Below are positions 9,788-15,466 of a DNA stretch of 64,000 bases, in pieces; position 1 is the stretch's first letter; each line of letters opens with the position of its first letter. This DNA is from Escherichia coli (GTDB lineage: Bacteria; Pseudomonadota; Gammaproteobacteria; Enterobacterales; Enterobacteriaceae). The DNA lies in assembly GCF_003018255.1 (NCBI RefSeq), contig NZ_CP027440.1; one strand, written 5' to 3'. The notes under the pieces were generated by a model. It ran no database searches. It worked only from the letters and a program-made list of their open reading frames with translations, and was not told the DNA's origin. The position numbers were made by a program, and so were the translations under genes.

Positions 9788-11731
9788 TTACTTACTCAAA
9801 TCCACCTGATAAATCGCAAACCCGATATCATCGGTCGCGACTTTATTCATCGGATATTGCCCTTTCTCTTTAATAAACGCCGCGGCTTTATCTGATGGAG
9901 AGGTTTCGAAACGGATATCCAGTTTCTTATCGCCAGCTATTGGTGCTAAACGCCAGTTGTTATCTGCCGCCGGGTGAATTTCCCCCGCACGTTTCGACTC
10001 ATCAGCAATCCACGCTGCCAGCACCGAGCGGTTCTCATCCGGTGAAGCAAAAGCGATATGGCTGTCGCCCGTACCGGCAAATTTGCCGCCGTAAGCGCGA
10101 TAGTTATTGGTGGCAACGAGGAACATGGCGTTCGGATCAATCGGCTTGCCGTTAAAGGTCAGGTTCTTAATCCTTTCCGCATTGGCATTAACCATCTGGC
10201 ACTCGCCGTCATAACGGGCGGGCTGGGTAACATCAATCTGATAATTCACACCATCAATAACATCAAAGTTATAGGTGCGGAAACCATCCCAGTTGATGAG
10301 TGACTGTGGTTTCGTGCTGTTAGGATCAATCTGGTTAAACTGTCCGGCGGAGCACTCCAGCCACTCTTTCACCTCTTTACCGCTGGCTTTCACCACAATC
10401 AGCGTATTGGGGTAGAGATAAAGATCGGCGGCATTACGGAAGGTCAACTGGCCTTTTTCCACCTCCACATAGCTTGCCGGGTCATTTTTGCGACCACCAA
10501 CTTTAAACGGTGCGGCAGCTGAAAGCACTGGCAGTTTTGCCAGATCCGGATCGCCCTGAATGTAATGCTCGACATACGCTTTTTGCGCGTTGTTCACCAC
10601 CTGCACGGTCGGATCGTCCTGCACAAGCGCCAGATAGCTATACATATTGTCGGCAGATTTACCGATTGGCTTGCTGACGAACTGGCGTGTGGCATCGTGA
10701 TCGGCTTTGAGTGTTTCTACCAGCTTGCTGTCTTCCGCCGCGAGGGATTTTTTATTCGCGATGTCGTAAATCGGCCGTGCTTCCGCTTTCGCCTGCGTCA
10801 CCTGCCATTTACCGCTGTCATTACTGAGTTGTAAGTCGACCACACCAAGATGATCGCCCCACATGCCTGGCATTACCGCCGGAACACCATTCAGCGTGCC
10901 TTTCGCGATATCAGCCCCTTCGATATCAGCAAAATCTTTACCTGGGAAAACGGCGTGAGCATGGCCAAACATAATGGCGTTAACGCCCGGAATTTCACTG
11001 AGGTAATAAACTGAGTTTTCCGCCATCACTTTATACGGATCGGCAGACAGCCCGGAATGCGCCAGAACGACAACGACATCGGCACCTTTCTCGCGCATTT
11101 CAGGCACGTATTTGCGCACGGTTTCGGTAATATCATTCACCGTCACTTTCCCGGATAAATTAGCTTTATCCCAGCCCATGATTTGTGGCGGGACGACGCC
11201 AATATAACCAATCTTCAGCGTCTGTTTTTTTCCGTCTTTATCGACCACTTCGGTGTCTTTAATTAAATACGGTGTAAACATTGGCTGTTTGGTTCTGGCG
11301 TCAATGACGTTGGCATTTACATAAGGGAATTTCGCTCCCGCCAGCGCATTTTTCAGATAATCCAGACCGTAGTTAAACTCGTGGTTGCCAAGCGTGCCGA
11401 CGGTATAGTCCAGCGTATTTAATGCCTTATAGACCGGGTGAATATCACCTGCTTTTAAACCTTTCGCCGACATGTAATCTGCAAGCGGACTCCCCTGAAT
11501 CAAATCGCCGTTATCGACCAGTACGCTGTTTTTCACTTCATTGCGGGCATCGTTAATCAGGCTTGCGGTACGTACCAGTCCGAATTTTTCCGTGGCGGTG
11601 TCTTTGTAATAATCGAAATCCATCATGTTGCTATGCAGATCAGTGGTTTCCATGATACGCAGATCGACCGTCGCTGCATTCACACTGGCGGCAATCAGCG
11701 TGGCCAGGAGCGTTGCGCTAAACTTAATCAT
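9788..11731 (-). CDS. cpdB: 2',3'-cyclic-nucleotide 2'-phosphodiesterase/3'-nucleotidase CpdB (periplasmic)
   Basis: ORF 9788..11740; second ATG (11731) has aagga SD at good spacing and gives 647 aa; signal peptide plus metallophosphatase motifs. Confidence 0.9.
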
Positions 11732-11920
11732 CAGGGACATCCTTTTATCATCGGGAATACGAAAGAAAAGGGAGAATAAACGTCTTACTTATAGAACAGT
11801 GAAGAATGCCACAATTTTACGCTTTGAAAATGATGACACTATCACAGTTGGCGCATTCATTAACGATAGGGTATAAGTAAAACAATAAGTTAACACCGCT
11901 CACAGAGACGAGGTGGAGAA

Positions 11921-12661
11921 ATGTTAGATCAAGTATGCCAGCTTGCACGGAATGCAGGCGATGCCATTATGCAGGTCTACGACGGGACGAAACCGATGGA
12001 CGTCGTCAGCAAAGCGGACAATTCTCCGGTAACGGCAGCGGATATTGCCGCACACACCGTTATCATGGACGGTTTACGTACGCTGACACCGGATATTCCG
12101 GTGCTTTCTGAAGAAGATCCTCCCGGTTGGGAAGTCCGCCAGCACTGGCAGCGTTACTGGCTGGTAGACCCACTGGATGGTACTAAAGAGTTTATTAAAC
12201 GTAATGGCGAATTCACCGTTAACATTGCGCTCATCGACCACGGCAAACCGATTTTAGGTGTGGTGTATGCGCCGGTAATGAACGTAATGTACAGCGCGGC
12301 AGAAGGCAAAGCGTGGAAAGAAGAGTGCGGCGTGCGCAAGCAGATTCAGGTCCGTGATGCGCGCCCGCCACTGGTCGTTATTAGCCGATCCCATGCAGAT
12401 GCAGAGCTGAAAGAGTATCTGCAACAGCTTGGCGAACATCAGACCACGTCCATCGGCTCTTCGCTGAAATTCTGCCTGGTGGCGGAAGGGCAGGCGCAGC
12501 TGTACCCGCGCTTCGGACCAACGAATATTTGGGACACCGCCGCTGGTCATGCCGTGGCTGTAGCTGCCGGAGCGCACGTTCACGACTGGCAGGGTAAACC
12601 GCTGGATTACACTCCGCGCGAGTCGTTCCTGAATCCGGGGTTCAGAGTATCTATTTATTAA
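11921..12661 (+). CDS. cysQ: 3'(2'),5'-bisphosphate nucleotidase CysQ
   Basis: 246-aa ORF with inositol-monophosphatase-family motifs ([12 protein letters not shown]). Confidence 0.9.
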
Positions 12662-13208
12662 TTAATTTATGCAGCAGGTCCATCACTTGCTGCACCTCTT
12701 CCTGAGTAAGCGCCCCGTCTTTGGCCCATTGCACGCGACCGTCTTTATCCAGCACCACTACAGCGGAACTTTCTTCATCCAGCTGCCAGGCACCGCGCGC
12801 GACGCCATTGCTATCGACAATAAACTGCGACCAGGGATAAAGCTTTTTATTACTCTCCAGACTGCTGCGCACAAACATGCCGGAACCCGGAATTGCGTCG
12901 TCGGTGTTAACAATGGTGGTGGTCTGGTAACGATCGTGCGGTAACTTTGCTGATTTAATCGCTTCAATCAGCGTCGCGTTTTTCTCTTTTGCAGAGGTGC
13001 GACCAGCAATATGTTGCAGTACTCGCACTTTTCCCACTAGCTGCGCGCTGTTCCAGGTTTTGTAGCTAAACTGATCTTTATCAAGCACCAACTCGCCACG
13101 ATCGGTAATGCCAATCGGCGGCACTCGCTGACCGGTTTCGAACTGATGTGCGGAAGCCATCATCGGCAACAGCAGGCAGGTGAGTGCCAGAATCTTGCGT
13201 AGGGTCAT
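12651..13208 (-). CDS. ytfJ: periplasmic protein YtfJ (DUF1107-type, signal peptide)
   Basis: 185-aa ORF with N-terminal signal peptide; 3' end overlaps the cysQ 3' end by 11 bp (convergent). Confidence 0.8.
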
Positions 13209-13532
13209 GGTGTTTCCTTCTTATGATATGCAGGTGATCCGACCACTTGGGTCTGAGTTTTAATCATATGTGCTATTTATCGAATTTCCCGCAAGTGTGA
13301 TGCCAGTTTGCGGTCAAGCGCACAAATCATATGAAAAATGAATGCTTATACTGAAGACGGCGCTTCGGTAAAAAGATAATTCTGAATAATTGTAACCTTT
13401 AGGTAAAAAAAGTTATACGCGGTGGAAACATTGCCCGGATAGTCTATAGTCACTAAGCATTAAAATTTGCGCCTCATAATAGTTGGGCCGATTGTGGCAC
13501 CGCACAGGCGTAATACTCAGCAGGAGATAACA

Positions 13533-13739
13533 ATGAAAATTTTCCAACGGTACAACCCACTTCAGGTGGCGAAGTACGTAAAGATCCTGTTCCGTGGACG
13601 GTTATACATCAAGGACGTTGGCGCTTTTGAATTTGATAAGGGTAAGATTCTTATCCCAAAAGTGAAGGATAAGCTGCATTTGTCAGTGATGTCCGAAGTT
13701 AACCGTCAGGTTATGCGTCTGCAAACAGAGATGGCTTAA
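13533..13739 (+). CDS. ytfK: small protein YtfK (DUF1107)
   Basis: ORF track frame 13467..13739; start [22 protein letters not shown] at 13533 (aggaga SD upstream) gives 68 aa. Confidence 0.8.
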
Positions 13740-13762
13740 CCAAAGTGCTATGCAGTAATAAG

Positions 13763-13796
13763 ACGGCTCCTGATTCAGGAGCCGTTGATGTTTCTG
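13763..13796 (+). terminator. intrinsic terminator after ytfK
   Basis: ACGGCTCC-tgattc-AGGAGCCGT hairpin followed by T-rich tract. Confidence 0.55.
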
Positions 13797-13800
13797 GGGG

Positions 13801-15144
13801 TTACGCGACGCTTTCTTCTTTATCTTTAGCGTCAGGCAATTTTGGCGAAAGGGCGGTGGCCTTGCTGTCGATTCGGGTCACCAGCAGCTGGTCGATGCGG
13901 TAGTTATCGATATCCACCACTTCAAATTTGTAGCCGGCGAATTTCACCGAATCGGTGCGTTTCGGGATCTTACGCAGCATAAACATCATAAAGCCGCCGA
14001 TGGTTTCGTAGTTGCCCGACTGCGGGAACTCGTCAATATCCAGCACGCGCATGACGTCGTCAATAGGCGTGCCGCCGTCTATCAGCCATGAGTTCTCATC
14101 ACGGGCGACAATTTGCTCTTCCAGCCCCTGACCGACCAGATCGCCCATCAGCGTGGTCATCACGTCGTTGAGGGTGATGATCCCCACTACCAGCGCGTAC
14201 TCGTTCATGATCACCGCGAAGTCTTCACCTGCGGTTTTAAAACTTTCCAACGCCTCTGAAAGGGTTAACGTATCCGGCACAATCAGCGTATTGCGAATTT
14301 GTACGCCGCTGTTCAGTGCCAGGCTTTGGTTAGCCAGCACGCGGTTCAGCAGGTCTTTAGAATCGACATAGCCGATGATGTGGTCAATATCTTCATTACA
14401 GACGAGAAACTTAGAGTGCGGATGTTCCGCCACCTTATTCTTCAGACTTTGCTCATCTTCGTGGAGATCAAACCAAATCACGTTTTCACGCGGTGTCATT
14501 GAAGACGGAACGGTACGGGATTCCAGCTCAAAGACGTTTTCAATCAGCTCGTGTTCCTGTTTACGTAACACGCCCGCCAGCGCACCGGCTTCCACTACCG
14601 CGTAGATGTCATCAGAAGTGATATCATCTTTACGTACCATTGGCAGTTTGAAAATACGGAAGATTATGTTCGCCAGTCCGTTGAAGAACCACACCAGCGG
14701 GGTGCAAACGTACAGGCAGAAGCGCATCGGGTTGATGATACGCAAAGCCACCGCTTCTGGCGCAATCATACCGATGCGTTTCGGGGTTAAATCCGCAAAC
14801 AGGATAAACATGCCAGTCACTAACGAGAAAGAGAGAATAAAGCTCAGTTGCTCAGAGAGTTCTGCCGACATATAGCGGGAGAACAGGCTGTGAAAAGCTG
14901 GAGAAAATGCCGCATCACCGACGATACCGCCGAGAATCGCCACTGCGTTCAGACCGATCTGGACCACGGTAAAGAACATGCCGGGATTTTCCTGCATATT
15001 CAGAACGCGTTGGGCATTTATATTGCCTTCATCAGCCAGCAGTTTAAGTTTGATTTTGCGTGAGGCGGCAAGCGAGATCTCGGACATCGAGAAGAACGCA
15101 CTTACAGCGATCAAACAGAGTATGACTAAAATACTGTTTAACAT
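13801..15144 (-). CDS. ytfL: UPF0053 inner-membrane protein YtfL (DUF21 + CBS pair + CorC/HlyC transporter-associated domain)
   Basis: 447-aa ORF, recognised as YtfL. Confidence 0.85.
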   Translation of the reverse strand: MLNSILVILCLIAVSAFFSMSEISLAASRKIKLKLLADEGNINAQRVLNMQENPGMFFTVVQIGLNAVAILGGIVGDAAFSPAFHSLFSRYMSAELSEQLSFILSFSLVTGMFILFADLTPKRIGMIAPEAVALRIINPMRFCLYVCTPLVWFFNGLANIIFRIFKLPMVRKDDITSDDIYAVVEAGALAGVLRKQEHELIENVFELESRTVPSSMTPRENVIWFDLHEDEQSLKNKVAEHPHSKFLVCNEDIDHIIGYVDSKDLLNRVLANQSLALNSGVQIRNTLIVPDTLTLSEALESFKTAGEDFAVIMNEYALVVGIITLNDVMTTLMGDLVGQGLEEQIVARDENSWLIDGGTPIDDVMRVLDIDEFPQSGNYETIGGFMMFMLRKIPKRTDSVKFAGYKFEVVDIDNYRIDQLLVTRIDSKATALSPKLPDAKDKEESVA

Positions 15145-15321
15145 ATCTTATCCGACCTTTCAGGCCAGATCCTCGGAAGGGGAAGTTGATTAATTTGTGT
15201 GAAATACACATTGAAAGCCGATTCGAAGAAAGTGAACCGGCATTTTCAGTGGCTAGTATAGCGTAAGGTACTGTAAAGCCGCCAGAGGGTTAAAATTCAG
15301 ACAGCTGAAAAATGAAAAACT

Positions 15322-15420
15322 GCCTGATGCGCTATGCCGAACAGGCCTACGCAGTCCCCGCAATATATTGAATTTGGACGATTTTGTAGGCCTGGCAAGG
15401 CGTTTACGCCGTATCCGGCA
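15322..15420. repeat. REP/BIME cluster between ytfL start and msrA end
   Basis: GCCTGATGCG...GGCCTAC and GTAGGCCTGGCAAGGCGTTTACGCCGTATCCGGCA motifs. Confidence 0.6.
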
Positions 15421-15466
15421 TAAACAAAATGCACTTTATCAACAATCTACATTTGTACCCGTAACG

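Follow-up and report, generated by a model that had tools for sequence, protein, structure and literature searches.

The 64-kb stretch of Escherichia coli DNA analysed here, referred to as the window, carries cysQ and ytfJ as a convergent overlapping pair: the two coding sequences lie on opposite strands, share nucleotides at their 3' ends and are arranged in the same manner in relatives (Table 1). A first-pass annotation of this DNA had proposed that the two 3' ends overlap by 11 bp, and the list of open reading frames and the sequence itself agree with it on the position of both stop codons. The common segment, which is part of tctATTTATTAATTAATTTAtg, is read as Ser-Ile-Tyr-stop in the cysQ frame and as Ile-Asn-Lys-stop in the ytfJ frame. 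It extends into a tract composed exclusively of A and T, and the AT-rich setting ascribed to the stops was thus correctly seen.

Table 1. Features at and around the cysQ/ytfJ junction of the window.
Feature	Position	Strand	Description
Rfam ES239 sRNA match	11732-11854	+	157 bits (gathering score 62), E = 3.5e-32
cysQ CDS	11921-12661	+	246 aa, 3'(2'),5'-bisphosphate nucleotidase; stop TAA at 12659-12661
H1, hairpin-like (CTGAATCCGGGGTTCAG)	12629-12645		cysQ codons 237-242, 5 nt beyond the ytfJ stop (- strand)
ytfJ CDS	12651-13208	-	185 aa, periplasmic YtfJ family protein, C-terminus ...HKLINK
ytfJ stop	12653-12651	-	TAG (reads CTA on the + strand)
CDS overlap, tail-to-tail	12651-12661	both	11 bp, CTATTTATTAA
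AT-only tract TTTATTAATTAATTTA with palindrome TTAATTAA	12654-12669		from alignment of 71 junctions
Empty site of the ytfI islet	12662-12669		8 bp against 1,228 bp in K-12 (L001 2813-4040); megablast breakpoints, K-12 sequence, local BLAST
rut-like C-rich, G-poor stretch	12662-12840	+	cysQ-sense RNA past the stop, antisense to ytfJ
H2 hairpin	12670-12694	+	10-bp stem (12670-12679 with 12685-12694), 5-nt loop

Both reading frames are genuine genes up to their C-termini. CysQ matches the Pfam family Inositol_P (2.5e-51) and YtfJ the family YtfJ_HI0045 (1.6e-77, residues 24-181 of 185). Only the general caution that ORF listing is a mechanical procedure would speak for a spurious overlap, produced by wrongly called reading frames or by a mistake in sequencing the window, and we assign this explanation next to no probability: both proteins align with their homologues through the final residue (in most species tblastn alignments run to CysQ residue 246 and YtfJ residues 183-185), RefSeq (PGAP) annotates the same pair with identical stops and overlap in matching genomes, the identical locus L002 included, and an 80-bp piece across the junction is found at full length and at least 95% identity in 3,792 E. 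coli genomes, for example that of ATCC 8739. Convergent overlap of coding sequences is as such ordinary; in one E. coli reference genome, 75 of 663 overlapping gene pairs are convergent (PMC4161906). Like other convergent overlapping pairs of bacteria, cysQ and ytfJ are two real opposite-strand coding sequences with a short common 3' segment around their stops, and nothing essential sets them apart, although their overlap is unusually stable: 74 of 80 enterobacterial species retain it, in one of three registers. The overlap was therefore correctly observed, but the arrangement is of a known and ordinary kind.

The K-12 locus has the same flanking genes as the window (cpdB, cysQ, ytfJ, ytfK and paeA/ytfL), and the order between them is cysQ, ytfI (312 aa) and convergent ytfJ (184 aa); a distance of 1,212 bp separates the stop of cysQ from that of ytfJ. 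The first-pass annotation, which had placed ytfI between the two genes in K-12 and found no such gene here, was right in both respects: ytfI is present in the K-12 genome, where alignment reveals no overlap, and it always adjoins ytfJ instead of being located elsewhere. Its description as a small gene did not hold, as the 312 codons sit on an insert of 1,228 bp. YtfI is absent from the whole 64-kb window (best tblastn match at E = 2.8; no blastn match to the islet) and the junction is contiguous, so that the window does not have a K-12-type ytfI islet locus. It corresponds to the ytfI-less locus of strains SE11 and SE15; ytfI has been described as a K-12-specific insertion between cysQ and ytfJ that nucleates H-NS binding and is absent from these two strains (Higashi et al., 2016; PMC4720273, S10 Fig). 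The strain-specific nature of ytfI is hence already known. Compared with K-12, the window lacks the islet and the hairpins that the islet places next to cysQ and ytfI, and its YtfJ ends in HKLINK (185 aa) rather than in QKLLK (184 aa).

The distribution of the two arrangements was assessed with a 611-bp query across the junction (12350-12960), which found a match in 5,418 of 5,426 complete E. coli genomes. The junction is contiguous in 3,795 of the 5,426, the non-contiguous matches break exactly at the cysQ stop, and the 1,228-bp islet of K-12 is present in exactly 1,623 genomes, every time beside ytfJ. Since these two counts add up to the 5,418 matched genomes, the locus exists in two forms: an empty, overlapping allele in about 70% of the complete genomes and one with the ytfI islet in about 30%, K-12, O157:H7 and O145 included. 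The implication of the first-pass annotation that the window is the odd one is thereby turned around. Most E. coli genomes have the overlap, which is also ancestral in Enterobacteriaceae, and K-12 is the exception, with ytfI and the K-12 intergenic terminators representing a minority, horizontally acquired state. As side observations, the cysQ-ytfJ allele of the window is itself rare, with at least 99% identity over the 611 bp in 2 of the 5,418 genomes and about 97% in most, and the genome nearest to the window over 10000-15460 is that of E. coli JNE23-011 (human, Japan), at 99.96% over 5.4 kb.

Judged from these genome comparisons, ytfI is a derived, horizontally acquired AT-rich islet. Its GC content is 34.5%, as opposed to 49% in the flanks, and its alleles within E. 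coli range from 100% to 80-90% identity to that of K-12. A candidate target-site duplication around the K-12 islet is not a clean one: the left copy (CTATTTACTAA) is exact, but the right copy (CCATTATTTGA) agrees at only about 8 of 11 positions, in AT-rich sequence. YtfI has no match in Pfam or NCBIfam, and in PADLOC it produced only an insignificant match to Cas6b (E = 8e-4, 17 bits). Two hairpins belong to the islet in K-12, one directly after cysQ (L001 2813-2870; GATGGCAGAA...TTCTGCCATC, -21 kcal/mol, z = -5.9) and one after ytfI (L001 3960-4000; CCCCTATC...GATAGGGG, then a T-rich run). Because the islet carries strong hairpins of its own, K-12 transcript-end maps report islet-borne elements at this place, and they do not describe the cysQ/ytfJ locus of 70% of E. 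coli.

Beyond E. coli, a YtfJ scan with one genome per species yielded 80 enterobacterial loci, in each of which the stops of cysQ and ytfJ were located. A tail-to-tail overlap of 11, 7 or 4 bp is found in 74 of these 80 other Enterobacteriaceae species. The 11-bp register (CTATTTAYTRA) occurs at 40 loci and includes E. whittamii and other Escherichia clades, Citrobacter, Salmonella enterica subsp. arizonae, the Klebsiella oxytoca group, Raoultella and Kosakonia; an overlap of 7 bp occurs at 28 loci (Enterobacter, Lelliottia, Pluralibacter, Leclercia) and one of 4 bp, with TTAA in common, at six (Kluyvera, Yokenella, Trabulsiella, the register of the Trabulsiella locus L028 being uncertain owing to a partial CysQ match). 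One assembly, L031 (CACSKA010000007.1), is titled 'Chryseobacterium sp. 18061' and contains an enterobacterial locus, with YtfJ 81% and CysQ 90% identical to E. coli; it is probably mislabelled or contaminated.

The two genes are separated at the remaining six loci, and what separates them differs. An E. coli locus (L007) has a divergent ytfI allele with 69% amino acid identity, and E. albertii (L009) a 1.5-kb AT-rich insert encoding a pentapeptide-repeat protein. In Citrobacter youngae ATCC 29220 (L045) the insert is 2.1 kb long and codes for a radical-SAM/SPASM enzyme as well as a membrane protein; in two Kluyvera species (L062, L063) it measures 0.9 kb and contains an S11 D-Ala-D-Ala carboxypeptidase-like gene, and K. 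intermedia (L070) has a spacer of 71 bp. Altogether, at least five mutually non-homologous inserts are found at the same cysQ/ytfJ junction in different lineages, which makes ytfI one of several independent insertions there and suggests that the hairpin and AT-rich tract described below form a recurrent insertion site. The ytfJ 3' end, hairpin H2 included, is duplicated over more than 30 bp at the flanks of the C. youngae insert, and it is only in this species that such a duplication is unambiguous. Within this insert, the radical-SAM/SPASM enzyme comprises 350 aa and the adjoining membrane protein 298 aa with a Cys/Gly/Ser-rich tail (GSSCGGSSCGGSSCSGSSCGGSGCGGCGGD); the two may constitute a maturase/substrate pair.

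The overlap in 74 of 80 species, together with the non-homologous nature of the inserts, indicates that the compact cysQ/ytfJ arrangement with its 11-bp overlap is ancestral in Enterobacteriaceae and that ytfI was inserted later. It is conceivable that the window lineage once had ytfI and that a deletion secondarily created the overlap, as the ytfI alleles are old and diverse within E. coli (100% to 80-90% identity to K-12) and the 77%-identical ytfI allele of L007 points to a long-standing polymorphism. Such a deletion, however, must have recreated the junction of the outgroups base for base: the CTATTTAYTRA overlap and a 185-aa YtfJ ending in ...HKL(L/I)(N/S)K are found in E. whittamii, Citrobacter, Salmonella arizonae, Klebsiella, Raoultella and Kosakonia, and the composition of the islet is foreign to its surroundings. 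We regard a loss of ytfI in the window lineage as highly improbable and effectively excluded. The explanation that we favour, and hold to be quite probable as a whole, comprises an ancestral overlap, an islet that never inserted in the window lineage, for which reason ytfI is absent there, and a hairpin, H2, that acts as a 3'-end element of cysQ.

The AT-only tract at the junction is a derived trait of E. coli sensu stricto, with ...TTGAGCAACTTA in its place in the rest of Escherichia and in other genera. These relatives have ...TATTGAGCAACTTATG where ...TATTAATTAATTTATG is found in E. coli. A cluster of G/C-to-A/T substitutions at 12660-12668, in which GAGCAAC became AATTAAT, is seen in E. 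coli sensu stricto only (compared with L004, L005 and L008). It creates the AT-only tract together with the palindrome TTAATTAA, alters the C-terminus of YtfJ from KLLNK to KLINK and turns the TGA stop of cysQ into TAA. The K-12-type allele has an ancestral-like GAGCAAC at the end of ytfJ, which there encodes ...QKLLK; the two haplotypes thus diverged before, or independently of, the AT-rich change.

The first-pass annotation had also concluded that the overlapping stops leave no room for terminators. This is accurate in so far as there is no intergenic space, but it overlooks the conserved hairpin H2, which starts 9 nt past the cysQ stop and lies inside ytfJ, within codons 172-180 (VQQVMDLLH). 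In a 60-nt context on the cysQ-sense strand, H2 folds with -16.5 kcal/mol (z = -3.06), and on the ytfJ-sense strand it folds as well, with -14 kcal/mol. For 71 distinct species junctions, RNAalifold yields a consensus that contains H2 and no other structure. All 71 sequences retain the eight core pairs, and a single pair varies (G-C in 65, A-U in 3, G-U in 3) by way of the synonymous changes CAG to CAA (Gln) and CTG to TTG (Leu). Covariation is accordingly minimal (1 of 10 pairs), and since most pairs never vary it is by itself uninformative on the structure. On the cysQ-sense RNA each of the two one-sided changes produces G-U, where the ytfJ-sense RNA would have A-C, a weak hint, consisting of two events, that the cysQ-sense strand may be the relevant one.

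Codon usage in the stem is more telling. Among the 71 sequences, V172 is GTG in 70, Q173 is CAG in all, Q174 is CAG in 65 and CAA in 6, L178 is CTG in 68 and TTG in 3, and L179 is CTG in all. Ranked for synonymous invariance among the conserved columns of cysQ and ytfJ taken together, the stem leucines are 1st and 3rd of 29, the valine is 1st of 22 and the glutamines are 1st and 3rd of 10. Codons outside the stem vary freely, with four codons in use for V175 in the loop and four to six for the neighbouring L167, L182 and L183. By this comparison of codons, the nucleotide sequence of H2 is more strongly conserved than the encoded protein would demand. A strong stem-loop is moreover found about 5-17 nt after the cysQ stop in all 11 arrangements that were folded, those bearing an islet included. 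Beside cysQ, both Kluyvera and C. youngae have kept a hairpin that resembles H2 (GCAGCAG...CTGCTGC), and ytfJ retains its own copy. The copy beside cysQ has no called ORF in three Kluyvera loci and forms part of the duplicated ytfJ 3' end in C. youngae; both Kluyvera species that carry the 0.9-kb insert have an identical H2-like stem and a different loop.

Measured against known terminators, H2 is of mixed character. It has the GC-rich stem-loop downstream of a stop codon that is typical of a canonical intrinsic terminator, but its tail (CCUCUUCC) contains 4 U in 8, where at least 5 U in the 8 positions directly after the stem are called for, and the consensus terminator scan did not list it, its tail CCUCUUCCUG having no U-tract. 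H2 was rejected as a canonical intrinsic terminator for this reason. The untranslated RNA past the cysQ stop does have the C-rich, G-poor composition expected of a Rho-dependent terminator: in 78-nt windows along the initial 150 nt or so past the stop, C exceeds G by a factor of 1.6-2.0, as compared with a C/G ratio of about 1.0 downstream of ytfJ. We infer that H2 is a 3'-end element of cysQ, be it a pause site, a terminator or an RNA-stabilising stem, and that it is possibly assisted by Rho. The second candidate, H1, was listed by the terminator-like scan, yet it is weak, restricted to Escherichia and missing from the RNAalifold consensus of the 71 species. Its pairing is realised in 65% of cells in the Escherichia register and in 85% in an alternative register, with frequent breaks and no covariation. 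H1 was thus dismissed as a conserved terminator of either ytfJ or cysQ; termination in its U-rich tail would, furthermore, precede the cysQ stop.

As to how such an element might work, H2 would form in the nascent RNA once the ribosome leaves the cysQ mRNA at the stop codon. The hairpin could then pause or terminate RNA polymerase, or it could shield the 3' end that is left when Rho terminates transcription in the C-rich antisense stretch downstream. Two alternatives, which are not mutually exclusive, would be a weak factor-assisted terminator and a hairpin that pauses polymerases and positions their collision. The cysQ terminator would in effect be embedded in ytfJ. Transcripts of ytfJ are translated through H2, for which reason the hairpin would be melted in them and should not stop ytfJ transcription. 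These transcripts are expected to run at least into the last cysQ codons, and no conserved element marks their end.

A comparable function has been proposed for bidirectional terminators, non-canonical stem-loops that are located at the boundary of convergent genes and form on both strands (Ju et al. 2019; Wang et al., bioRxiv 10.1101/2022.10.23.513370). According to this model, the hairpin pauses polymerases and thereby fixes the place of head-on collisions (bioRxiv 10.1101/2022.10.23.513370). H2 resembles these elements at the sequence level in its location and in its ability to fold on both strands. It differs from them in that it is part of a coding sequence, not of an intergenic spacer, and is translated through on the ytfJ strand.

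Conservation of H2 could also have causes that are independent of any transcript end, such as codon or protein constraint on the QQVxxLL segment of YtfJ, a DNA-binding site, or an element governing the translation or stability of the ytfJ mRNA. The stem is built of CAG and CTG, which are preferred codons, and part of its synonymous invariance could therefore be codon bias; the near-invariance also leaves covariation unable to discriminate. The hairpin forms on the ytfJ-sense strand too, and as a perfect DNA palindrome H2 could instead be bound by a protein. Yet the other conserved Leu, Gln and Val columns of both genes vary freely at synonymous positions, and the few changes in the stem are either compensatory or give G-U on the cysQ-sense strand only. 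A hairpin, often an H2-like one, also stays beside cysQ where an insert intervenes, and in the Kluyvera loci it is non-coding. A role of H2 unrelated to 3' ends consequently appears rather unlikely to us.

The 3'-end role for cysQ that we prefer bears on the question of interference, which the first-pass annotation had raised. If both full-length mRNAs are made, the overlap of the coding sequences entails at least 11 nt of complementarity, and more if cysQ transcripts end at H2; at their 3' ends the two mRNAs would then share some 11-45 nt or more, probably several tens. Because transcripts of convergent genes often overlap in E. coli, interference in both directions is in principle plausible. 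On this basis the overlap might be viewed as a regulatory excludon, in which transcription of one gene, for instance ytfJ driven by sigma-E or sigma-S, represses the other, either through colliding polymerases or because RNase III cleaves the 3' duplex. Besides the complementarity of at least 11 nt and a synteny and overlap conserved across the family, this idea draws on precedent: 165 convergent excludons have been mapped in MG1655 (PMC12288877), mscL-arfA is a worked example of regulation by 3' overlap (PMC10070815), and other convergent pairs are terminated by RNAP collisions positioned by hairpins (bioRxiv 10.1101/2022.10.23.513370). In addition, binding at the ytfJ promoter is associated with sigma-E and sigma-S (PMC4447067). 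In convergent excludons, mscL-arfA included, the terminator of one gene is situated inside the other's transcription unit (PMC12288877; PMC10070815). What cysQ and ytfJ have in common with them is that they are neighbouring convergent genes whose transcripts are predicted to overlap at the 3' ends. The main text of the MG1655 excludon map makes no mention of cysQ/ytfJ, and K-12 carries the islet at this place.

Against regulation of this kind stands the fact that 30% of E. coli and several other species tolerate between 0.07 and 2.1 kb of DNA between the two genes, from which it follows that tight coupling is dispensable. We also know of no functional link between the PAP phosphatase and YtfJ. 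Altogether, an excludon strikes us as distinctly unlikely, and any interference between cysQ and ytfJ would probably be modest. One may combine the various elements into a bolder reading, in which H2 is a family-wide, coding-embedded terminator or pause site of cysQ, an obligatory 3' antisense overlap couples envelope-stress (sigma-E) expression of ytfJ to the level of the PAP phosphatase encoded by cysQ, and the junction with its hairpin and AT-tract may in addition serve as a landing site for small islets; we see this as a long shot. If it were true, H2 would have restricted synonymous change in ytfJ from a time earlier than the separation of the enterobacterial genera, and the junction would have received ytfI, the pentapeptide-repeat gene, the radical-SAM pair and the S11 peptidase, each in a different lineage.

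Our search of the literature found nothing specific on the cysQ/ytfJ overlap or on the 3' ends of the two genes. H2 offers a small and clean example of a putative transcript-end signal that lies inside the coding sequence of a neighbour and constrains its synonymous sites; as a conserved hairpin embedded in coding sequence it adds modestly to a type of element that is already known, and its importance for biology at large is small. The natural variants with and without the islet nevertheless make the locus usable for testing models of convergent-gene termination. An Rfam scan of 11700-13600 gave no match at the junction itself. It did identify an ES239 sRNA match in the divergent intergenic region between cpdB and cysQ, directly upstream of cysQ, a position that would possibly fit a cysQ leader or a transcript of the promoter region.
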